Assembly (NCBI GenBank): GCA_965116025.1
Contig: OZ220480.1
Span: forward strand, 928,001 to 992,000
DNA length: 64,000 bases
Direction: 5' to 3'
DNA from: an uncultured candidatus Porisulfidus sp.
Lineage (GTDB): Bacteria > Pseudomonadota > Gammaproteobacteria > Poriferisulfidales > Poriferisulfidaceae
A program made the position numbers and the translations under genes. Numbering within the stretch: position 1 is the stretch's first letter; the number at the start of each line of letters is the position of its first letter. Shown piece by piece: positions 35,315-47,083 of this stretch. The notes beneath the pieces are model-generated. The model saw nothing but the letters and a program-made list of their open reading frames with translations, did no database searches and was not told where the DNA came from.

Positions 35315-36142
35315 TCAAGCGCTCTCATTGACATCGACGAACGTCTGCCGAAGTCGTCGGAAGGACTCGGCGTAGGTCTCTCCTATGCACACCGCGGGGA
35401 CGATCTCAATTCCGATAGATTCGTCCATGAGGCGTTGCAGTCGCTCGTCGATATCGGCGTGGCTTTCTCCAGTGTTTTGGTGAATCTTCTCGACAATCTC
35501 CTGGCGAGTCAGTACTCCATCGCTTTTCGGATTTCGCGCTTCGTCAAGCGCATGCAATCGTCCAGTCTGGATGATCTCACGCAAGCCAAGAATAGCCATA
35601 AGCCGGTGCTGGCCATCAAGCGCATAGAATCCGGTCTCGCTATCGTCCATATCCCAGTATGTTCCAGCGGGATTCAACCCTTGAAGAGTAAGACTATCAT
35701 TCATGGCGCGCGCGTCGGTGCCCCACCGTTCATGCCGCTCATCGTGGACCCAGCACTGATACCCGGTGAGGAGGAGTGGAGGAAATTTGTGGTGCTTGCG
35801 CACTGCCAGATACGTGGCCATTTCAATCTGGCGGCGCCAGTCAGGTTGCCGGTGCCGTATCTGCTCCATGATTTCGGGATCCGCTTGGATTCGCCTGGAA
35901 CCTTCCCCTCCTTCTTGAAATATTGGCAGATTGGCCGCGAATCGGACCTTGGTGGCGACCCACTTGAGAGTGGTGGACGTAAGGTACGAAGAAACCCCAC
36001 CCATGCGGACTTGATGCGCCAAGTGATGGTTCTTCTGGACTCGGAGCTTCTCCAGCAGATGACTGAGAACTACTTGCTCTCTTCGCTGATCCTTCGTGGA
36101 ATCCAGAATCTCGGCCATGTCCTGTTGCGGGGTTGCGCTCAT
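35315..36142 (-). CDS. DGQHR-domain (DndB-related) protein, apparently N-terminal part only
   Basis: R.PD.RR...M..YL, FPPLL, ALDGQHRL, ends at FVDVNESA*. Confidence 0.85.
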   Translation of the reverse strand: MSATPQQDMAEILDSTKDQRREQVVLSHLLEKLRVQKNHHLAHQVRMGGVSSYLTSTTLKWVATKVRFAANLPIFQEGGEGSRRIQADPEIMEQIRHRQPDWRRQIEMATYLAVRKHHKFPPLLLTGYQCWVHDERHERWGTDARAMNDSLTLQGLNPAGTYWDMDDSETGFYALDGQHRLMAILGLREIIQTGRLHALDEARNPKSDGVLTRQEIVEKIHQNTGESHADIDERLQRLMDESIGIEIVPAVCIGETYAESFRRLRQTFVDVNESA

Positions 36143-36192
36143 TTTCGATTTCCCTTGATAATCGCGCCAAGTCTTCTTCGAGTCACACTGTC

Positions 36193-37361
36193 TAGTGTAG
36201 TGTACGTCAATAATATATATTTATGCTACACTTCGCCGGATTGCCGCGATCAGGAGGAGAACCGCATGCGCCGCGCCATTCCCATCGAGCTCAGCGCCGA
36301 GGAGCTCGCCGCCCTGAGCGAGACGGCTCGCTCGAGCCTCTCCAGCGTTCGCGACGCGTTTCGCGCTCGCGTCGTGCTGCTCGCCGCCGAGGGCCGGCGC
36401 ACCATCGACATCGCCGATCAACTGGACGCGAGCGCCAGCACGGTGGCGAAGTGGAGGAACCGCTTCGCCGAGCGGCGCCTGGCCGGGCTGTCCGACCGTC
36501 CTGGGCGAGGGCGCAAGCGGACCTACGGCGACGACGTGGTCAAGCGCATCGTCGAGGACACCCTGCATGACGCTCCCGAACAGGCCACGCATTGGTCGAC
36601 CCGTGGCATGGCTCAGCACGCCGGGGTGAGCCACGCCACCGTTCACAAGATCTGGCGCGCGCACGGGCTGAAGCCGCATCTGGTCCAAACGTTCAAGCTG
36701 TCCACCGACGAGCGTTTCGTCGAGAAGCTGCGCGACGTCGTCGGGCTGTATCTGGACCCGCCTGAGCATGCCTTGGTCCTGTGCGTCGACGAGAATTCGC
36801 AGATCCAGGCGCTGGATCGCGCCCAGCCCGGATTGCCGATGAAGAAGGGGCGCGCCGGAACCATGACGCACGACTACAAGCGGCACGGGACCACCACCTT
36901 GTTCGCGGCCCTGAACGCCGTGGACGGCACGGTGTTCGGGCGTTGCTACCAGCGCCATCGGCATGTCGAGTTCCTGCGCTTCCTGCGGGAGATCGACGGG
37001 CACGTCCCGAAGGAGCTGGAGGTCCACCTGATCGTGGACAACTACGCCACCCACAAGCATCGCAAGGTGAGGGAATGGTTCGCGCGGCGGCCGCGTTTCC
37101 ACGTCCACTTCACGCCGACCTCGGCGTCCTGGCTGAACCTGGTGGAGCGGTTCTTCCGGGAGCTGACGGAGCGGCGCGTGCGGCGGGGGGTGTTCCGAAG
37201 CGTGCGGGAGCTGACCCGGGCGATCCACGATTTTCTGGATCATCACAACGCCGACCCGAAGCCGTTCTCGTGGAGCAAGACGCCCGAGCAGATCCTGGAC
37301 AAGCTGGCGCCCCTCCGCGCCAAGCAAGTATAAATATCTCTAATTAGATTACACTACACTA
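36193..37361 (+). mobile_element. IS630-family insertion sequence
   Basis: Terminal IRs ctagtgtagtgta (36192-36204) and tacactacactag (37350-37362), CTAG/TA target; GC-rich inside a lower-GC island. Confidence 0.92.
36266..37333 (+). CDS. IS630 transposase
   Basis: SD caggagga; HTH, CVDE, THDYKRHGT, DNYATHK, SWLNLVERFF DDE motifs. Confidence 0.95.
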   Translation: MRRAIPIELSAEELAALSETARSSLSSVRDAFRARVVLLAAEGRRTIDIADQLDASASTVAKWRNRFAERRLAGLSDRPGRGRKRTYGDDVVKRIVEDTLHDAPEQATHWSTRGMAQHAGVSHATVHKIWRAHGLKPHLVQTFKLSTDERFVEKLRDVVGLYLDPPEHALVLCVDENSQIQALDRAQPGLPMKKGRAGTMTHDYKRHGTTTLFAALNAVDGTVFGRCYQRHRHVEFLRFLREIDGHVPKELEVHLIVDNYATHKHRKVREWFARRPRFHVHFTPTSASWLNLVERFFRELTERRVRRGVFRSVRELTRAIHDFLDHHNADPKPFSWSKTPEQILDKLAPLRAKQV

Positions 37362-37661
37362 GCATGACCGATGTCTCCGGCCATCATAGTACATCACGCT
37401 CACGCTCGTCTTTTGAATCTTGGAGTGCTGAATGCGACAGAGATTGAAGCCGACGAAAGGCTGATGGCAAAGTCGAACGATAGGAGAGTATCGTCGTGTG
37501 CTGTATGATGCGGGGAAGCTCGTTTTACGGTTGTGGGTTCATCATTTGCTAAAGTACGGAAGATGGTTCAAACTGGTCCGGGATGGATTGAAATCAATTA
37601 AGTTTACTTCCTACCCAGAGTGGTTACTATGATCACCAAAATTCGCACTTTATGACAATTA

Positions 37662-38477
37662 ATGGGCATGAATAAAAACGCAATCCGCCTTCCTCGAGGA
37701 CGAACGCAACTTGTCCAGGTGCTGTCCATGGCCGGTGACGTGATTCGCGTCGGCGATGTGGTGATTGCCCTTCAACTTGATCGCGCCGCTGCCGCCCAGC
37801 GTTTATCTCGCTGGGCTGGACAGGGATGGCTGAGACGGGTGGGCCATGGGGCTTATGTCGCCGCTTCCATTGACACCATGGGGTCGAATCGTGTCCTTGA
37901 TGACCCGTGGGTGCTCGTTCCCGCACTTTTCGCGCCAGCCTACATCGGAGGACGTACAGCCGCTGAGCATTGGAACTTGACCGAACAGATATTCAAGGAT
38001 ATTTTCGTGGTGACCGCGCAGACTGTACGCCAGAAACGTCAAGAGCGGCACGGCACGATCTTTTCGCTGAAACACATCGATGAACGGAAGATTTTTGGCA
38101 CGAAGAACATTTGGTGTCATAAAACGAGAGTGCCCGTTTCCGACGTGCACCGTACGATCATCGACATGCTCGATAACCCGGCAACCAATGGCGGCATCCA
38201 GCATGTGGTTGACTGCTTCGCGGCCTATCTGCGACGTGATGATCGGAATGACGATAAGATCGTCGAATATGCGGTGGGATTTGGCAACGGAGCCGTCTTT
38301 AAACGCCTAGGGTTTCTGGCCGAACGTTTTTCTGGCGGTGTCGAACTGGCCCGTCTTTGTGAGCGACATCTGAGCGGTGGACACGCGAAGCTCGACCCTG
38401 TCCAGGATGGACCACTCATCGTGCCGAAATGGCGGTTGCGCGTACCGGAATGCTGGGCTCGCGCGGAAATGATATGA
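37662..38477 (+). CDS. AbiEi-like (type IV TA antitoxin) transcriptional regulator
   Basis: wHTH with GWL.RV.HG.Y, YIGG.TA..HW.LTEQ, VSD..RT.IDML, KRLGFL. Confidence 0.8.
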   Translation: MGMNKNAIRLPRGRTQLVQVLSMAGDVIRVGDVVIALQLDRAAAAQRLSRWAGQGWLRRVGHGAYVAASIDTMGSNRVLDDPWVLVPALFAPAYIGGRTAAEHWNLTEQIFKDIFVVTAQTVRQKRQERHGTIFSLKHIDERKIFGTKNIWCHKTRVPVSDVHRTIIDMLDNPATNGGIQHVVDCFAAYLRRDDRNDDKIVEYAVGFGNGAVFKRLGFLAERFSGGVELARLCERHLSGGHAKLDPVQDGPLIVPKWRLRVPECWARAEMI

Positions 38478-38565: not shown

Positions 38566-39438
38566 GTGGCGAGTCTGTCATTGGCGTTGGCGGTCAAGGA
38601 AGAGCCGCCGCAATTCGTCCTCAAGCGTCAGGACAATCTTGAATTTATGTCGGAACTTCCGGATGGAATATTCAAACTGATCGTCACGTCTCCACCTTAT
38701 AATCTTGGCAAGCCCTACGAGAAAAAACGCCTTTCCACGGATGAATATGTCGAAAAACAGTCAGCGGTGATACGGGAATGTATTCGCCTGCTCCATGATC
38801 AGGGTTCTATTTGCTGGCAGGTGGGGAACCACGTAGAAAATGGGGAAATCGTGCCATTAGACGCTTTGCTCTATCAGGTTTTCGCTTCCCATGGATTGAG
38901 GCTTCGGAACCGTATCGTTTGGCATTTCGGGCATGGCCTCCACTGCACTAGGCGCCTTTCCGGGCGATATGAGACCATAAACTGGTGGACCAAGAGCGAC
39001 GATTACACATGGAATCTTGATCCTATTCGAGTTCCATCCAAATACCCGGGGAAGCGTTATTTCAAGGGGCCGAACATTGGTAAGTTGTCCTGCAACCCAA
39101 AGGGGAAAAACCCGAGTGATGTTTGGGAGTTTCCAAACGTGAAAAGCAATCATCCAGAAAAAACCATTCATCCATGTCAATATCCTGTCGAACTTGTGGA
39201 ACGTCTCGTTCTCTCGATGACGAACGAGGGTGATGCCGTTCTAGACCCCTATGTCGGGGTAGGTTCTTCGGCGGTCGCGGCTCTCAAGCACGGCCGCGTG
39301 GTTTATGGATGCGATGTGGTGGAAGATTACATCCGCATAGCGAACCGGAGGATTGAGGAATTATGCGCCGGCACGCTCAAGACCCGTCCCATGGGAAAGC
39401 CGATCTATGATCCATTAAAGCCGAAAGGAGGACATTGA
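38566..39438 (+). CDS. Type II N4-cytosine/N6-adenine DNA methyltransferase (beta class)
   Basis: VTSPPYN, NPSDVW, HPCQYP, VLDPY.G.GSS. Confidence 0.93.
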   Translation: MASLSLALAVKEEPPQFVLKRQDNLEFMSELPDGIFKLIVTSPPYNLGKPYEKKRLSTDEYVEKQSAVIRECIRLLHDQGSICWQVGNHVENGEIVPLDALLYQVFASHGLRLRNRIVWHFGHGLHCTRRLSGRYETINWWTKSDDYTWNLDPIRVPSKYPGKRYFKGPNIGKLSCNPKGKNPSDVWEFPNVKSNHPEKTIHPCQYPVELVERLVLSMTNEGDAVLDPYVGVGSSAVAALKHGRVVYGCDVVEDYIRIANRRIEELCAGTLKTRPMGKPIYDPLKPKGGH

Positions 39439-40049
39439 TGGAGATTGGGGCGACGTACTCGCACCTCAATGGAATGGAGTACCTGATGGTCCATCATGCC
39501 GAATTATGGGATGAGGTCTTGGAGGTGATAGCTGGCGTGGATGCTCATGCCTGCAAAAACAAGGTTTCCAAGGAGCGAACCATGAAGGGGAAAATGCTGT
39601 ATTCCCCGGGAGACATGAATAGGGCATTTCGCTTCAGATTTGGTAATGCTGGATGGAGAGAGCAACGCGATACGTTCTGGGTCACGAAGGACGAGAAAGT
39701 CGCGCGGAAGATATCCGGCCAATCACCGGAAGTGCAAAAAGCAACCATAGAAAAAGCTGGGTATGTCCCGATAATGTCATACAACCAGACAGATTTCGTG
39801 AAAGGTCGCGTCGCTGTGGAAGTGCAGTTCGGCAAATACGCTTTTGTGGCGCACGACTTGTTCGTCAAGCACATGAGTTTTTATGTCTCTGGCGTTATTG
39901 ATGTTGGAATCGAGGTATTGCCGATGAAGTCGATGGAACGTGAAATGTCCTCAGGTGTCCCTTATTACGAAAGGGATTTGATGAATGTCGTTCGCCAAGG
40001 GCGCGGGGTTCCGGCTGTTCCTTTGGTTCTCATTGGCGTTACGCCATAG
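39438..40049 (+). CDS. BglII/BstYI-family restriction endonuclease
   Basis: YSHLNG.E, KVSKE.T, LYSP, NQTDFVK.RVAVEVQFGKY; TGATG-coupled to the MTase. Confidence 0.88.
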   Translation: MEIGATYSHLNGMEYLMVHHAELWDEVLEVIAGVDAHACKNKVSKERTMKGKMLYSPGDMNRAFRFRFGNAGWREQRDTFWVTKDEKVARKISGQSPEVQKATIEKAGYVPIMSYNQTDFVKGRVAVEVQFGKYAFVAHDLFVKHMSFYVSGVIDVGIEVLPMKSMEREMSSGVPYYERDLMNVVRQGRGVPAVPLVLIGVTP

Positions 40050-40119
40050 CCAAGTATCTGACGTGGCGGCGGGTATCTTTTCAAGGCGTAGGATCGGTTG
40101 CGGGCTCCTGGATGTGTTT

Positions 40120-40128
40120 TGTTATAAT
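40120..40128 (+). promoter_or_regulatory. Extended -10 promoter upstream of dndC
   Basis: TG-t-TATAAT, 43 bp before ATG 40172. Confidence 0.6.
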
Positions 40129-40171
40129 CGTTCCATTAGAAGAGCTTCCATCTAGAAAATCCCACAAGTAA

Positions 40172-41420
40172 ATGGCCGTAGCTATTCAGGGAAGTCCCCT
40201 ACCGTCTGCCACCAAAAGTGTTTCTTTTCTGAAACACTCAGAAGGACTCGACCGAATTAAAGGGGGGGGGGGGGGGGGGGGGGCTAACCTCTAACGTTCC
40301 CTCCGACAATACTTTCGAGGGAATCAGACGAGAGATTTACGAAGAGTACACAGCGCTTCACGACAAGCCTTGGATCATCGGGTACTCTGGAGGCAAAGAC
40401 AGTACGCTTGTCGCGCACCTTGTAATTGAAACACTAATTTCCCTGCCGCGCAGTGAGAGGCGTAGGACTGTCCATGTAGTAGCAAACGATACGCTTGTCG
40501 AGAGTCCATTGGTAATGGAACATGTTCGAATCGGACTCTTGGAAATCGAAAAGGCGGCAAGGGCATTTGATTTACCTGTTGTTGTCGCCACCACAGCACC
40601 AGAACTGAATCAGACTTTTTGGGTCAACCTCATTGGTCGAGGCTACGCTTCGCCCAACCGCAATTTTCGCTGGTGTACTGATCGGATGAAGATCCAGCCA
40701 ACCAGTAAATACATTCGAAAACAGGCGGGAATCTCTGGCGAGGTGGTGCTTCTCCTTGGTGTTCGCCGGAGGGAAAGTGTCGCACGGGCTGGTATGGCGG
40801 CCAGGTATGACAATGGCGCACGATTGAACAGGCACAACGACCTTCAGGGCTGTTGGGTGTTCAGGCCAATACTTGAGTTAGGCGAGGACGATGTCTGGGG
40901 TTTCCTCGCGGAGCACAAACCACCTTGGGGGTGTAGCCATGATCGTTTGATCCGACTGTATCGAGATGCAGGTGGAGGAGAGTGTCCGGTCGTAACATCC
41001 GCGGCGGATGCGCCTTCATGTGGGACAACATCTTCACGTTTTGGATGCTGGACCTGCACCGTGGTCGAGAAGGACAAGAGTTTGGCAGGCTTTGTCGCTT
41101 CTGGATTCGACCACTTCACGCCGTTGCTTGAGTTTCGAGACTGGCTCGTAGCAATTCGCAACGATCCCAAGCGTAGGCTCGCCCGTCGCCGTAATGGTCG
41201 TGTGACGATTACCAAGAAAGGCGTGTTCGTACCCGGTCCGTTCAATTTAGCCACCCGGAAAGAAATTCTTGATCGACTACTGATGTTGCAAGAGTGCTCA
41301 GGGATGGCTTTGATACAACAGTCCGAGGTAGAGCGTATAAGGGAATTGTGGGCGGAAGACGCGGTGTCCAGTGTTGAGCGAAATGCTGAAGAGAGGCGCA
41401 CCCATATTGGGAGGGCATGA
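40172..41420 (+). CDS. dndC: DNA phosphorothioation sulfurtransferase DndC, out of frame across a G22 tract as sequenced
   Basis: Frame from 40284 gives PWIIGYSGGKDST, NDTLVE.P, RWCT..MKI.P, GVR..ES, CP...SCG..SRFGCWTC; only upstream ATG (40172) joins it if the G count is a multiple of 3. Confidence 0.88.
40262..40283 (+). repeat. Poly-G homopolymer (22 G)
   Basis: Counted 9+10+3 G between a40261 and c40284. Confidence 0.9.
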
Positions 41421-41626
41421 TGTCGAATGGTAATGTCGCGCTATTTCATAGTAAAGCAGGACGAAACCTTGTCCTTTCCAAATGCAGGGCAGAGGGACTA
41501 GATCCGAAGGTGCTTGAACGATTAGTTGCTGTAGAGATAAAGCAACAAGGAAAGCTAAAAAAGCGCGGAATAACGAGTGCTTTTGATGAAATTTTTGACA
41601 GCATAGAAGTCGAAGAGGGTGAATGA
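41417..41626 (+). CDS. Small protein associated with DNA-modification operon
   Basis: 69 aa, ATGA-coupled to dndC and dndD; RGI...FDEIFD acidic C-terminus. Confidence 0.75.
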   Translation: MMSNGNVALFHSKAGRNLVLSKCRAEGLDPKVLERLVAVEIKQQGKLKKRGITSAFDEIFDSIEVEEGE

Positions 41627-43704
41627 TGCACCTCCGTTCAGTTGAACTAGTCAATTGGCGTTCGTATCGTCACACGCACTTTAATTTTCCAATATCGGAT
41701 GGCAATCGGAATGTCATACTTATAAAAGCACCAAACGAATATGGGAAAACTTCTTTTTTCGAAGCTATAACGCTTGGATTGTTTGGGCGTGAGGGATTGC
41801 GTTTCGTACCTAGGGCCCAACCTCGGGTTGTCACCAATGACGGCATGGAAAATTTGATCAAGATCAGCTATAGCCAATTTCTCGGTAAAGTGCTTCATAG
41901 ACGAGCTACCGAAAACGGTCCGGCGAAGTGTTCAGTGTCAATCAAAGCTGATGATGACACTGGAGTACCTATCGAACTTACGCGGATTTGGCATTTTCAG
42001 CGAAGTGGTCTCCACAAGCCAGCCGACGATGAAATTAATATTCTGTATGGCCATAAGAGGGAGCCCGTTCAACCTCCACCTGGTATTGAAGATAGTGGTC
42101 TATGGTTCCGTGACTGGATTGCGCTGCACTTTTTGCCACCGAGTTTGGCCGTGTTCTTTCTTTTTGATGGCGAACAGGTGCAACAGTACGCGAGACAAGA
42201 AATGAGCCAACAGGTGCGATTAGGGATCGAAAATCTGCTGGGTCTTAATATCTTGAACGAGCTCCGGGATTCGCTCGCAAATTATGCTCAACGAAAACGG
42301 AAATCCGTACCACTACCGGCCAACAGTGTGATTAAGGAAGTAGAGGATGATATCGCTACCATTTCGGAAGATATTGAGCGCAATCAAAAAACATTTGACA
42401 AAGCAGTAGGAATTTTGGGCGAACTTGAATTAGAGAGAGATCAGTTATCCCAAGTCATTGGTGGGCGTGATGGGACAGTAGCTGAGGTCGGAAACCTCAT
42501 GAAAGAAGAAGCCCGATATCGGGAAGAGGCGCGGAGCGCGATGAAGGCACTACTGGAATTAATCCAGGAAGACGTTGCTTTAGCTGTTGCGGGTGCTAAT
42601 CTACGGGAAAGCACGCGTGCCACCCTCATGGCAGAAGCAAAGCGTGAGCGATGGGAGTCTGGCCGTAACGAAGGCACCCAGAATCTTGACCGCTTCGCTC
42701 TTGAACTTAGAAAGTGCGTTGATGCTTTTGATCCGCCACTTAATGAAAAATATTGTGTAGCTGTGGTTGAAGCAGGCAGACAGGCATGGAATTCACTATG
42801 GAATCCAGCACCCGAAGGGTGTGCTGAGGTTTATCGCCATCCGTCCATCAAAGGCACGATGCGTGACCGTGCGATTGAGTTGCTACTATCCTTAGATAGC
42901 CATACCAAAGGAGAGCTGAAAGACCAAGTGGATAGATTCAATGTTGCCGTCGAACAGGCCGAAGCCAAAAAGCGAGAATGGCAAGAAACAGAGGCAACGG
43001 CTCAGGAAATCAGCCCTCATTTAGATCGACTTAAGAATCTATCCGAAAATATCTCGACTCATAAGGGTCAGAGGGATGAGGCTGAACGGGCGATTAGAAG
43101 CAAAAAATCAGATCTCTCTGATAAACAAGCAGAATTTGGCCGCTATGTGTCGGGCAAAGTAAAAAGTGGTCCCGCATTGAGGCATGCTACCTTTGCTGAT
43201 CGTTACGCTACCCTAATCCCCAATCTCGTAGAGGATGCTTGGCCAAATGAAGTTAACGAGGTCGCTGTGGAAATGACTAAAGCATGGAAGAAAATGGCCA
43301 ATCACCCGGAACGTGTGGACCGGATTGAGATCACTCCAGACTGCAGAGTTAGGATGCTGGCTGCAGGGGGCGGGGATTTACACGATATCGACATGTCAGC
43401 GGGTGCCAGCCAAGTGTTTACGCAGGCCTTAATTTTGGCTATAACCAAAGTCAGCGGACGGGCCTTTCCGTTTATAGTCGATACACCATTGGCTCGCCTG
43501 GGCAGGGTTCCGCGAATTGGGGTCCTGAAAACGTTTACAGACCGAGCAGGCCAAGTGATTCTCCTTTCTACTGACCAAGAAGTTGTGGATGACAAGCTTG
43601 ATGCAATTAGAGAGCGTTTGGTGGCTGCCTTCGAATTAACAGTCAATCACGACAAAGGTGTTTCAACAACAAGTGTCCTCGAACTCGATATAGGGAAACT
43701 CTAA
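41623..43704 (+). CDS. dndD: DndD-like SMC/ABC ATPase
   Basis: L.NWRSY, N.YGKTS, LFG, FFLFDGEQ, coiled coil, SAG..Q, PFIVDTPL.RL, QVILLSTDQE. Confidence 0.9.
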   Translation: MMHLRSVELVNWRSYRHTHFNFPISDGNRNVILIKAPNEYGKTSFFEAITLGLFGREGLRFVPRAQPRVVTNDGMENLIKISYSQFLGKVLHRRATENGPAKCSVSIKADDDTGVPIELTRIWHFQRSGLHKPADDEINILYGHKREPVQPPPGIEDSGLWFRDWIALHFLPPSLAVFFLFDGEQVQQYARQEMSQQVRLGIENLLGLNILNELRDSLANYAQRKRKSVPLPANSVIKEVEDDIATISEDIERNQKTFDKAVGILGELELERDQLSQVIGGRDGTVAEVGNLMKEEARYREEARSAMKALLELIQEDVALAVAGANLRESTRATLMAEAKRERWESGRNEGTQNLDRFALELRKCVDAFDPPLNEKYCVAVVEAGRQAWNSLWNPAPEGCAEVYRHPSIKGTMRDRAIELLLSLDSHTKGELKDQVDRFNVAVEQAEAKKREWQETEATAQEISPHLDRLKNLSENISTHKGQRDEAERAIRSKKSDLSDKQAEFGRYVSGKVKSGPALRHATFADRYATLIPNLVEDAWPNEVNEVAVEMTKAWKKMANHPERVDRIEITPDCRVRMLAAGGGDLHDIDMSAGASQVFTQALILAITKVSGRAFPFIVDTPLARLGRVPRIGVLKTFTDRAGQVILLSTDQEVVDDKLDAIRERLVAAFELTVNHDKGVSTTSVLELDIGKL

Positions 43705-43706
43705 AA

Positions 43707-45245
43707 ATGAATGCTGGATTAGAAGATCTTATGACTTCTACATTCCGGACAACCCGGACTGCAGACAAGATTTGTGCTGATCTCAACGAAAAATTGGGTT
43801 GGAAGAGTCGGTATGTTGCTGCTCGCTTGGCTCTAGGAAGATCGCTATCCCACATTGAGCAACCGCCTGAACTTACATCTAAAGAAACCGAAGAAATGGC
43901 GACCCCCATGCGTGGCATGCAACTATTTGGCGAAGGAGCACAGGCCGCAGTTTGGCTAGCCATCATCACGGAACATAGCAGTGAAACAGAGATGACCAAA
44001 AGGAGCCTGCAGGGGTTGGTTTCACGCCACTGGCATAGGGGTGCATTTCTTCTCGGCCAAGACTGGAATGATTGTGGTTGCGCCATGGATAAATTCGTTG
44101 CGCGCTTAGCTGAACTTGCCGATTTTTCTGGAGATGGTGGTGGGAGTGATACTATTTCGGCCCCCAGTGCTCCCACGTATGCGGAAGAAATTAGATTACC
44201 GGTAGGAGAGATTGCTCACGACCTCCAATCAGGCGAGCAAGTAACATTCTCATTGAATGGAGAAGGCGGTAGCCCACATATGGCCATCATGGGCGGGGTT
44301 GGATCTGGTAAGACCAGGACCGCCGTCCACATGCTTCGCATGTTGCGCCAATACTGCGAGCTCCCGCTTCTCGCATTCGATTTCAAGGGCGACCTCGCCG
44401 ACCGCCTTGTCGCTAGTTTTGGTGCCACCGTGGTTTCCCCGCCAGAAGAAGCCATCCCACTGGATGTTTTGTATATCACATCTCGTGATGATATATTGAT
44501 AAAAACCTCTGCCGGTCGCATTCGGGACTCGATAGCCAAAGTGAAACGGGGCAGAGTTGGTGGTATCCAGCTAGAAGCGTTACGCGAAGCGGTTGAATCA
44601 GCTCTGCGCCATGGGCCAGCATCTACGCCAGCGACCCTTCCCGACGTTGCCTCAGCACTGAAGTCCGGGTATGAAGACCGCAATCGGCCTCCAGACGAAT
44701 TGACGGTGACATTGAACGAGCTAACACAGTTCGTGCTTTTCGAACCAAAGTTTTCACCAGCCGAATTCTTTTCAAAAAGTTGGATTATTCAGCTTCCACA
44801 AGGTGGCTCTGAAGAAATGAGGCGGCTGATTATCAATCTGACACTTGACGCATTAGACCGTTGGATCAACTCTCAACCTGATGCGCCAACGGATGATCGA
44901 GGCGTTCGCGCTCTCCGCCATTTGACCATGCTTGATGAAGCTCATGTGATCTTGTCAACGAAGCTTCCCGCTCTTGGAAATCTCGTTCGCATGAGCCGGT
45001 CCAAGGGTGGTTCTATTATGTTGATATCACAATCGCCTGATGATTTTGAGCGTGCCGAAGATGGTTATTTGGATAATATGGGTATGACCTTGGCCTTTAA
45101 TACTCAAGCTAAGCCTGGGCCAATAAAACGCATTTTCGTTGACAATACCTGCCGCTTAACGAGTTTGAAGGCTGGTGAAGCAATGTGCCGGCTTCGTTTG
45201 GAGGCCCGAACACAGAAGATTCTTTGCTGGAAGCCTGAAGATTGA
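43707..45245 (+). CDS. dndE: DndE domain fused to HerA/DUF87-like P-loop ATPase (DndEi-like)
   Basis: N-terminal Y..ARLALGRSL...LFG...HW.RG DndE pattern; then HMAIMGGVGSGKT, FDFKGD, LDEAH, R.SRSKG, SQSPDD. Confidence 0.8.
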   Translation: MNAGLEDLMTSTFRTTRTADKICADLNEKLGWKSRYVAARLALGRSLSHIEQPPELTSKETEEMATPMRGMQLFGEGAQAAVWLAIITEHSSETEMTKRSLQGLVSRHWHRGAFLLGQDWNDCGCAMDKFVARLAELADFSGDGGGSDTISAPSAPTYAEEIRLPVGEIAHDLQSGEQVTFSLNGEGGSPHMAIMGGVGSGKTRTAVHMLRMLRQYCELPLLAFDFKGDLADRLVASFGATVVSPPEEAIPLDVLYITSRDDILIKTSAGRIRDSIAKVKRGRVGGIQLEALREAVESALRHGPASTPATLPDVASALKSGYEDRNRPPDELTVTLNELTQFVLFEPKFSPAEFFSKSWIIQLPQGGSEEMRRLIINLTLDALDRWINSQPDAPTDDRGVRALRHLTMLDEAHVILSTKLPALGNLVRMSRSKGGSIMLISQSPDDFERAEDGYLDNMGMTLAFNTQAKPGPIKRIFVDNTCRLTSLKAGEAMCRLRLEARTQKILCWKPED

Positions 45246-45301
45246 GAACAAGCATCTTGATGGCTTGAAAGCATCTCACCTTGAGCTTGATGTCGGTCCT
45301 G

Positions 45302-47083
45302 TCAGAGACGGATCCCGTCCACGTGTTGCTGCAGCCAACTTTCTAAGGCCGCCGCGTGCCACAGAAGGCTGCCGTCCAGAGCCGTCCGATGCCGTAGCGG
45401 TTCCTGAAGCAACCGGTTCAGATATTCTCCCCGGAACAATCCCCGCCCTCGGCATTCTGGGCGGTTCAGGGTCTCCCGTGCCCAGTCCAGAAACGACCCC
45501 CGCACGTACTTGAGGGCGGGCACCGGGAAGTATCCTTTCGGGCGGTCGATCACCTCCGTCGGCAGTCGGGACCGCGCCAGGGCGCGTAGCGGATACTTGC
45601 CGCCATCGCGCAATTTCAGTTCCGCCGGCATTCCCGCGACGCATTCCACCAGTTGATGATCGAGGTAGGGCACGCGCGCCTCGAGGCCCCAGGCCATGGT
45701 CATGTTGTCGACGCGCTTGACCGGGTCGTCGGTGATCAGCATGGTCGCGTCCATGCGCAGCACGGAATTCAGGAACTCGACATCCTCGCCACCTTCCAGC
45801 CGTTCGGAGAGCAGCGTCCGGGTGTGGTTCTCGCCGACCCATTCAGGCGCGAGAGCCGCGCGCAGGTCCGCGTGAGAGCGGTCCAGGTAATGGCGGCAGA
45901 AGGCGTCCAGCCCGTCAGCCCGCTCCGCATGCATTTTCGGATACCAGGAGTAGCCTGCGAACACCTCGTCCGCGCCCTGCCCGCTTTGCACCACCGAGAT
46001 GTCCTGCTTGACCTGCTCGGCCAGCAGAAAGAACGCCGCCGCGTCCTGCGCGACCATGGGTTCGCTCATGCATCCGATCGCCTCGTCTAAGCGCTCTAGT
46101 AGCTGGTCGTCGCGGATGAAGTAGCGGTGGTGCTCGGTAGCGTAATGCCACGCCACCGCGTCCGAGTAGTCGAATTCGTGCCCGGCCTCGCCGCCCGCGT
46201 CCTCGAAGCCGATGCTGTAAGTTCGGATGGGCGAGGAGCCGCGCTCGGCCAGCAGGGCCACCAGCAGGCTGGAATCCAGACCGCCGGAAAGCAGCACGCC
46301 AACCGGGATGTCCGAGGCTTCCGCGCGCTTGCGCACGGCCTCTCGAAGCTCGACATGCGCCTGCTCCACCCATTCTTCCGCGCTACGTCCGGGATCTGGA
46401 TCGCGCGCGTCCAGTTTCCAGTAGCGTCGTTCCGTCACCGAGCCATTCGCGTGGACGGTCAGGTGGTGCCCCGGAGCGAGTTTGCGGATCGAGCGCAGCA
46501 GGGTGCGCGGCGCCGGGACGACCGCGTGGAGACTTAGGTGATGATGCAGGGCGACCTCGTCGAGCGCGAGGTCGACGTCTCCGGTGGCGAGCAACGCTTG
46601 CGCGCTGGATGCGAAGCGCACCGCGCTGGAAGTCCGGTGGTAATACAGCGGCTTGATGCCCAGCCGATCCCGGGCCAAGAACAGCCGCTCCGCGCCCGGG
46701 TCCCACAGGGCGAAGGCGAACATGCCGTGCAGACGCCCGACGCAGTCCTCGCCCCATTCGGCATAGGCTTTCAGGATGACCTCGCTGTCTCCCGTCGTGC
46801 GGAAGCGGTGGCCGCGCTCTCGGAGCTCTTCTCTCAGTTCCGGGTAGTTGTAAACGCAACCGTTGAACGCCAGAACTCTCCCGGAATCGGGATCTTTCAG
46901 TGGCTGGTGCGCGCGGGGATGCAGATCAATGACTGACAGGCGGCGGTGTCCCAAGGCGACGCCGCCTTCATTCCACTGGCCTTCGTGATCGGGTCCGCGC
47001 CGCGCGAGCGGGCGAAGCATGCGAGCGACGCGGGCCGGGTCGGCGGGCCTCCGAAAATTCCGTTCTCCCGCGAATCCGCACAC
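45302..47083 (-). CDS. Asparagine synthetase-type amidotransferase (N-acetylglutaminylglutamine amidotransferase-like)
   Basis: GTG-CG N-terminus, RGPD, HRRL, FNG.VYNY, RDRLGIKPL, LSGGLDSS, GQGADE, DDPVKRVDNMTMAWGLEARVP. Confidence 0.88.
   Translation of the reverse strand: MCGFAGERNFRRPADPARVARMLRPLARRGPDHEGQWNEGGVALGHRRLSVIDLHPRAHQPLKDPDSGRVLAFNGCVYNYPELREELRERGHRFRTTGDSEVILKAYAEWGEDCVGRLHGMFAFALWDPGAERLFLARDRLGIKPLYYHRTSSAVRFASSAQALLATGDVDLALDEVALHHHLSLHAVVPAPRTLLRSIRKLAPGHHLTVHANGSVTERRYWKLDARDPDPGRSAEEWVEQAHVELREAVRKRAEASDIPVGVLLSGGLDSSLLVALLAERGSSPIRTYSIGFEDAGGEAGHEFDYSDAVAWHYATEHHRYFIRDDQLLERLDEAIGCMSEPMVAQDAAAFFLLAEQVKQDISVVQSGQGADEVFAGYSWYPKMHAERADGLDAFCRHYLDRSHADLRAALAPEWVGENHTRTLLSERLEGGEDVEFLNSVLRMDATMLITDDPVKRVDNMTMAWGLEARVPYLDHQLVECVAGMPAELKLRDGGKYPLRALARSRLPTEVIDRPKGYFPVPALKYVRGSFLDWARETLNRPECRGRGLFRGEYLNRLLQEPLRHRTALDGSLLWHAAALESWLQQHVDGIRL

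Follow-up and report, generated by a model that had tools for sequence, protein, structure and literature searches.

In the genome of an uncultured candidatus Porisulfidus sp., translation of the DNA phosphorothioation gene dndC depends on a homopolymer of 22 G (G22), which separates a short leader from the part of the gene encoding the conserved enzyme and which is so placed that a length change by one unit would switch translation of DndC. The assembled state is OFF. We favour, at a probability of roughly 0.55, the view that the run is a slippage-prone contingency tract, which would turn translation of DndC, and hence phosphorothioation, on and off. Such G runs fill this genome, so that the sulfur backbone mark is probably switched at random.

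Reading frames at the 5' end of dndC

The window (the whole stretch of 64,000 nucleotides that was analysed) shows the following features around the start of the gene:

40120..40128, + strand: extended -10 promoter-like element TGTTATAAT, 44 nt before the ATG, putative promoter
40172..40261, + strand: leader of 30 codons (MAVAIQGSPLPSATKSVSFLKHSEGLDRIK; MAVAIQ...DRIK), from sequence and frames
40262..40283, + strand: G22 homopolymer, poly-Gly if its length is divisible by 3, from sequence and the run count of the window
40284..41420, + strand: DndC core, 378 codons and stop, with PP-loop SGGKDS and conserved Cys cluster (TIGR03183, PADLOC)
40292..40294, + strand: TAA closing the ATG frame at 22 G, from translation

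A BglII-like restriction gene ends at 40049, and a 120-nt spacer lies between its stop codon and ATG 40172, which is directly preceded by an in-frame TAA (40169-40171). The ATG, the 30 open codons and G22, as given in a preliminary description of this DNA, can be read directly from the letters. With 22 G, the ATG frame reads ...DRIK GGGGGGG ANL* and renders a 40-residue OFF product, translation stopping at 40292-40294, shortly after the tract, as had been claimed; with 23 G, the run is followed by GGC TAA (read by eye). Both wrong frames therefore end one to four codons past the run. The frame starting right after the run, on the other side, is open for 378 codons, including SGGKDS, and the ATG frame and the DndC frame join only at G counts that are multiples of 3 (18, 21, 24), which agrees with the read-through into the DndC core predicted earlier for exactly these lengths. 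Upstream, the DndC frame is shut by TGA 40230, and its first ATG, GTG or TTG is TTG 40509, located beyond the SGGKDS motif; the statement that this frame offers no start between the two positions is thus correct. The leader frame is the sole frame started by ATG, GTG or TTG that is able to feed DndC. As assembled, dndC has no usable start of its own, ATG 40172 being one base out of frame, and G21 or G24 would fit. It should be noted that the earlier caveat concerning the exact G count, which is unreliable, still stands.

G22 is the sole G/C run of at least 10 nt in the window, where it accounts for all 13 overlapping G/C 10-mers; shuffled windows contained a mean of 0.40 such 10-mers, and 0 of 100 shuffles reached 13.

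The extended -10 named in the preliminary description is present (TGTTATAAT at 40120-40128), and TGNTATAAT occurs once in the window, both strands searched, namely inside this element; as to chance, 18 of 100 shuffles had at least one copy anywhere in the window. A two-hexamer promoter scan gave nothing at 39800-40600, because the element has no -35 match, and promoter and terminator scans were likewise empty at 45000-45500 and 39800-40600. Rfam models (E up to 1) had no match at 39800-40600, and no RNA dataset was listed as containing the stretch. No evident Shine-Dalgarno sequence lies upstream of ATG 40172, and a 30-codon open frame ahead of the run is not improbable by chance. Compared with the N-termini of homologues, the leader scores -0.9 with an HMM of 31 homologue extensions, a value equalled or exceeded by 1276 of 2000 shuffles. 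A second copy of 40050-40261 was not detected in the genome by BLAST, and the upstream flanks of the G/C runs of the genome cluster solely within paralog families; a common 'promoter-leader-run' cassette is hence absent. ATG 40172 is the putative start codon of DndC, for which the arrangement of frames, its position 44 nt past the unique extended -10 and the length of the closest homologues (see below) speak.

The dnd module and its island

Downstream of the DndC core, three further genes follow:

41417..41626, + strand: small ORF, 69 aa, no family match, with 4-nt overlaps at both ends (dndC stop, start of the following gene)
41623..43704, + strand: DndD-related ABC ATPase (PbeC-like), 693 aa (PADLOC PbeC, TIGR03185, Pfam AAA_23)
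43707..45245, + strand: DndE domain fused to a HerA/FtsK-type ATPase, 512 aa (Pfam DndE, DUF87, TrwB_AAD_bind)

The DndC core reaches 367.7 bits with the NCBI equivalog model TIGR03183 (cut-off 290.4) and matches PADLOC DndC at E=2e-117, SspD merely at 4.5e-9. The SGGKDS PP-loop and a conserved cysteine cluster are motifs of DndC, and S35-T41, C131, C234, C246, C255 and C258 are invariant in an alignment of five DndC sequences. The 693-aa ATPase scores 618 bits with PADLOC PbeC over its full length and 204.5 bits with TIGR03185 (DndD), which is under the cut-off of 245.85, and the 512-aa fusion reaches 28.5 bits with Pfam DndE (cut-off 25), next to PADLOC matches to the C-terminal region of DndH. 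A DndD-type ATPase and DndE are thus encoded beside DndC. As to the cysteine desulfurase, two IscS/NifS-like genes are found elsewhere in the genome (432 and 376 bits, DndA cut-off 480), such matches being present in 14 of 14 control genomes as well.

The same architecture, i.e. DndC, a small ORF, a DndD/PbeC-like ATPase and DndE fused to HerA/FtsK, is described in PMC10853773, where PbeC is classed with the CxC-type ABC ATPases and PbeB is portrayed as a small protein that evolves rapidly. The gene content at our locus is identical to that of the Pbe-type clusters presented there, and the 69-aa ORF appears to hold the position of their 'rapidly evolving small protein'. In the main text of that paper, supplements aside, neither 'phase-varia' nor 'homopolymer' occurs.

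DndB, DndF, DndG and DndH were not found in the genome with one model each; the models for DndF and DndG matched no control genome, so that these two blanks are weak. The SspE model gave just weak generic matches of the DUF262 type in the genome. With this reservation for DndF and DndG, the genome-wide search is in keeping with the lack of a restriction arm stated in the preliminary description, and as no DndF, DndG or DndH was found, the OFF state should be tolerated. Since dndC, the small ORF, the DndD-like ATPase gene and the DndE-HerA fusion gene overlap or abut, an untranslated dndC would probably lower the rest as well, by lost coupling or polarity; both such polarity on the downstream genes and the PT activity of the module are predictions. 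The module lies in an island (~37.4-45.3 kb) of ~50% GC versus ~65% in the flanks, which also carries an AbiEi gene and a BglII-like R-M pair.

G/C runs across the genome

Investigating the whole genome, a single contig of 2,018,984 bp with 62.7% GC, we observed 45 G/C runs of 15-39 nt, zero runs of 9-14 nt and nine of exactly 8 nt. By its QueG protein, the organism is closest, among named relatives, to Gammaproteobacteria of the Acidiferrobacterales/Sulfurifustis type (about 68-71% identity). Divided by 3, the lengths of the 45 runs leave the remainders 0, 1 and 2 in 13, 14 and 18 cases, respectively, which implies that the runs are not kept at in-frame lengths. We clustered the ORFs lying downstream of them into families. 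One family comprises 24 ORFs of 889-1166 codons (23 of them above 1000) with the Pfam Autotransporter beta-domain and the run in the 5' end, and another one six FN3/autotransporter adhesins, including an ORF of 9613 codons; one pair of run-bearing ORFs adjoins GT2 glycosyltransferase genes, and the remainder are singles. Autotransporter and adhesin paralogs hence contain 30 of the 45 runs. In the 24 autotransporter paralogs, the run is found at the same codon position with lengths from 16 to 27, from which it follows that lengths do change in evolution. As assembled, the frame entering the long ORF has no upstream start in 16 of these 24 genes, which fits with a family that is mostly OFF.

Seven defence genes besides dndC also bear a run. 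They encode a type ISP R-M enzyme, a type IIG R-M enzyme, a type III Mod methyltransferase, a GmrSD-like protein, an N6-methyltransferase followed by a specificity-like part, a DUF499/HmaC-like ATPase and a HATPase_c_3 protein matching a PADLOC candidate. Including dndC, the frames differ across the run or a start is lacking in six of the eight genes, and two (those of Mod and the GmrSD-like protein) are in frame. MutS and MutL are both encoded in the genome, so that the case for instability has to be made from run length by itself.

The run in relatives and in other samples

Runs of G15 or longer can also be found in 11 of 15 genomes of the same genus; a sister family has them in 9 of 12 genomes and a family with genomes of ~1 Mb in 0 of 12. 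In fragmented assemblies, the runs are often located at contig ends. Three public sequencing runs of one study (X1, X2 and X3) contain the stretch and were compared as contigs, with letters 40251-40291 masked. In X1, one contig (built from 31-letter words) extends over 39400-41600 with no differing letters and an unchanged total length, so that the run is 22 there as well, barring compensating changes; X1 may, at the same time, be the source of the assembly and is therefore not independent. In X2 (0.96 of words) and X3, no contig bridges the run, and the contigs from both sides end within the 41 masked letters. Estimates of the run lengths of X2 and X3 from these contig ends were dropped, as left and right ends gave inconsistent values.

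The strain in X3 has diverged, differing at 15 positions over 851 nt upstream and at 122 over 1298 nt of dndC. Among the 40 of 136 differences that are listed, spanning 39432 to 40780, none falls in the leader (40172-40250) or in the extended -10. Past the run, there are 0 differences at 40298-40355, 25 at 40356-40780, in the DndC frame, and 97 (by subtraction) at 40781-41595; 20 of the 25 listed changes affect the third codon position, and of the 23 codons changed, 18 are synonymous. We considered whether the run marks a recombination junction between strains and ruled this out, since divergence rises gradually in dndC with no step at the run. The arrangement of leader, run and dndC therefore appears to be common to both strains, with the coding frame kept, and the distribution of the changes shows dndC to be under purifying selection.

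DndC homologues and other dnd loci

The closest homologues of DndC (79-83% identity) possess variable, low-complexity N-terminal extensions of 45-50 aa, and 12 of 19 homologues compared are 410-422 aa long, the G21 form of DndC having 415 aa. The residues 'TSNVP', two residues past the run, align inside the coding sequence of the homologues; in the same alignment, the run together with eight codons has the appearance of a linker insertion. An ancestral start at the site of the run, suggested by homologues of 60-72% identity, which start 16-21 codons before a conserved helix, was dropped in view of the 45-50 aa extensions of the closer ones. Among the matches from a collection of 5.8 billion proteins there is no near-identical full-length protein, and the sole 100% match is a 301-aa gene call from this genome, which lacks the active-site loop. 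Only the out-of-frame allele was found, with no ON allele among the matches. Of the stochastic ON/OFF switching of the sulfur mark put forward in the preliminary description, the parts that hold are the reality of the run, the dependence of translation on its length and its membership in a genome-wide set, whereas an in-frame allele was not found.

A class-wide search of 401 genomes, among them the unpublished G337, which was used for this tally only, gave six genomes with a match at E up to 1e-60, the best of 65% identity, and no closer locus. In a survey of dndC 5' ends for SSRs, as had been proposed, runs of 8 or more are present in 0 of 9 dndC-like loci of relatives (L002-L010), and 1 of 80 DndC loci of named public genomes has a run of at least 10 between -500 and +300 relative to the gene start. 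This one locus (L037) belongs to a 3.9x Roseococcus MAG and contains a C12 six codons past an ATG, out of frame with DndC; the case is weak because its assembly also has poly-G contig ends. In a Rhodobacterales MAG (L067), an in-frame G26 is found inside dndA, just upstream of dndC, where it coincides exactly with the conserved HGGG(H/Q)E(R/G)G stretch, and more runs of at least 12 G occur in that genome. Poly-Gly can thus be tolerated in dnd genes, as assembled.

Proposed mechanism and alternative explanations

We propose that transcription would begin from the extended -10 at 40120-40128 and translation from ATG 40172. With 18, 21 or 24 G, the run would be read as a short poly-Gly linker within a variable N-terminal extension, giving full-length DndC (415 aa at G21); with 22 or 23 G, the ribosome would halt one to four codons past the run and the PP-loop enzyme would not be made. 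Replication slippage may alter the length of the run at high frequency, and a clonal population would consequently mix cells with and without phosphorothioate marks.

Several other explanations have to be weighed against a contingency tract. That the run is a sequencing or assembly artefact, such as a poly-G read tail or a chimeric join, is highly improbable. Poly-G artefacts do exist in two-colour chemistry, and one assembly (G042) has poly-G contig ends, but an error of this kind would have to be reconciled with 24 paralogs sharing a run at the same codon position, with the complete absence of runs of 9-14 nt from the genome, with the recurrence of runs across many related genomes, with an X1 contig that is collinear across the run and with DndC homology resuming exactly at its 3' edge. 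The caveat raised earlier, that long G runs can be sequencing artefacts, accordingly does not apply here in view of the paralogs, the relatives and the X1 contig: the G22 run is genuine and not an isolated artefact. A real run might still not act as a binary switch at the DNA level, if its true length were 21 or 24 and DndC constitutive, or if slippage of RNA polymerase or the ribosome on G22 provided a steady in-frame fraction, in the manner of a 'dimmer'. In long accurate reads, the main error that remains is in long homopolymers, and slippage during transcription is established for long runs of A/T; the other possible indels in the window mentioned in the preliminary description and the in-frame G26 in dndA of L067 point in the same direction. 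The X1 contig, though maybe from the same data, nevertheless has the same total length as the assembly, multiples of 3 are not preferred genome-wide (13 of 45) and paralogous runs differ by many units (16 to 27), so that we regard this explanation as rather improbable.

It is also conceivable, albeit unlikely, that the run is real and dndC simply knocked out, the run having expanded in the N-terminal linker of a gene acquired horizontally and the out-of-frame state being a decaying dead end and not a selected switch. The out-of-frame allele is the only one seen, the ribosome-binding context at ATG 40172 is weak, the leader is not demonstrably homologous to the N-termini of homologues, the island is foreign (~50% GC versus ~65% in the flanks) and the dndC genes of relatives have no run, all of which speaks for this explanation. 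Against it stand the intact 378-codon core, the three intact downstream genes and the preserved unique extended -10; the divergence of X3 is mostly synonymous (18 of 23 codons), and the X3 contigs also end at the run. Both wrong frames, moreover, stop at once, and the in-frame product matches the homologues in length. We therefore retain the slippage-prone contingency tract as the best explanation for G22 in dndC.

Comparison with known systems

In phasevarions, an SSR within a type III mod coding sequence (for example, in Haemophilus influenzae) undergoes slipped-strand mispairing, which leads to ON and OFF sub-populations with different genome-wide marks (PMC6435447, PMC12707154). The locus described here resembles them in that a repeat tract lies within the coding sequence of a DNA-modifying enzyme, and the genome also has a run in a type III Mod gene. 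It differs in that the enzyme is a PP-loop sulfurtransferase for the backbone phosphorothioate instead of a base methyltransferase and the repeat a 22-nt homopolymer instead of a tetranucleotide, and in that switching and any regulon are putative. Within marking defence systems, the nearest precedent that we found is the G tract in pglX of the Pgl/BREX system of Streptomyces coelicolor, described as phase-varying at a measured 10^-2 to 10^-4 (PMC4365076). Both cases concern a DNA-marking defence system in a high-GC organism with a G tract in the modification gene, whereas chemistry and proteins differ, and switching was measured there and is predicted here. Many homopolymeric G tracts in genes for surface structures and R-M systems, in a mixture of in-frame and out-of-frame states, are reported for Campylobacter jejuni (PMC8713573). 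In contrast to the poly-G contingency loci of this species and of similar bacteria with small genomes, the runs here are found at 62.7% GC in a genome with MutS and MutL and are concentrated in autotransporter paralogs. With 15-39 nt, they are also much longer than the runs commonly seen in Campylobacter. Our search of the literature for poly-G tracts with autotransporters in symbionts or MAGs found none.

Phosphorothioation is partial and heterogeneous between cells. A 2018 review considered phase variation as one possible explanation for partial PT modification, but stated that neither the dnd genes nor their promoter had been seen to contain SSRs (PMC6435447). We found no report of an SSR-controlled dnd gene in the literature searched, including PMC6459556 and PMC10587187, although supplementary files might contain some. 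The preliminary description, in which slippage switching was not known for Dnd systems, is in agreement with this search as well as with the review. SSR control of DNA-modification and defence genes is known; such control of a dnd gene has probably not been described previously.

Significance

Annotation pipelines for MAGs silently truncate genes of this type, as in the 301-aa call without the active-site loop. A dndC gene translated or not according to the length of a hypermutable G run would offer a concrete case, found in nature, of phase variation behind PT heterogeneity, and Dnd would join the defence systems that some bacteria gamble with, with a bearing on phage-host dynamics and horizontal transfer. 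More tentatively, and as a candidate only, the locus can be seen as a 'phosphorothioate phasevarion', in which a poly-G flips DndC and with it a genome-wide sulfur mark, alongside seven other tract-bearing defence genes and ~30 adhesin genes. If this were true, it would be the first SSR control of a non-methyl DNA modification and would explain, by a natural mechanism, why PT modification has long been noted to be partial and heterogeneous, and the cells of a clonal population of this organism would differ combinatorially in their epigenetic, immune and surface states.

Long G/C homopolymers in the genome and its relatives

Screening the whole genome of the source organism (G000, a single contig, C1), we observed 45 G/C homopolymers of 15-39 nt and none of 9-14 nt, while the longest A/T runs reach only 9-10 nt. 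The lengths of the 45 runs are distributed 13/14/18 modulo 3, and 32 of them have their G-rich strand as the leading strand, as assigned by cumulative GC skew. Among the relatives' genomes surveyed (G001-G040), G runs of at least 15 nt are present in 11 of the 15 genomes of the same genus and in 9 of 12 from a sister family; none were found in the 12 genomes of a related family, whose genomes are of about 1 Mb.

Defence and adhesin genes carrying runs

Besides dndC, seven defence genes of G000 contain long G/C runs, and such runs are also found in genes of adhesin type:

G000:C1 at 11481, 154914, 605518, 666483, 772596, 1038751 and 1683699: the seven run-bearing defence genes
G000:C1 1471950-1471970 and 1498267-1498287: places in the autotransporter family (2 of 24)
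G000:C1:108730-137568 (approximate), minus strand: 9613-codon ORF after a C29 run

The defence genes comprise a type ISP enzyme, a type IIG enzyme, a type III Mod, a HATPase_c_3 (PDC-M33A-like) protein, a GmrSD-like protein, an N6-MTase with a specificity-like part and a DUF499/HmaC-like protein. In each of the 24 autotransporter paralogs (about 1100-1160 aa), the G run is located some 23-24 codons past the leader ATG between near-identical flanks, and 16 of the 24 lack any start in the frame that runs through into the long ORF. The 9613-codon ORF, FN3-rich in residues 1-1100, is one of a six-member family in which autotransporter beta-domains occur.

Runs in dnd loci of other bacteria

Homopolymers were also observed in two DndC loci from other public genomes:

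L067:2468-2493: in-frame G26 inside a dndA-type cysteine desulfurase gene (Rhodobacterales MAG)
L037:318-329: C12 run at the 5' end of the gene for a DndC homologue, six codons past an ATG

The run-bearing gene of L067 sits directly upstream of dndC, its G26 takes the place of a conserved stretch, HGGG(H/Q)E(R/G)G, and further long G runs occur elsewhere in the same genome. The DndC homologue of L037 (68% identity) derives from a low-coverage Roseococcus MAG; its C12 is out of frame in the assembly, which also has poly-G at contig ends.

Surroundings and public annotation of dndC

Two ORFs are situated at the left edge of the island of low GC content that harbours the dnd genes:

window 35435-38477: IS630-type transposase ORF, then the AbiEi gene

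The transposase ORF (632 aa) combines DDE_3 with duplicated HTH regions, and AbiEii was not recognised among the scanned ORFs. Relative to the window, the diverged strain X3 shows two 1-nt indels: an insertion at 40047, at the end of the REase gene, and a deletion at 41385, 11 codons ahead of the dndC stop.

In the public protein collection, dndC is represented solely by a shortened product:

window 40509-41420: 301-aa product (P0008), start TTG 40509

This entry is without the SGGKDS loop and illustrates how gene callers conceal such candidate switches.
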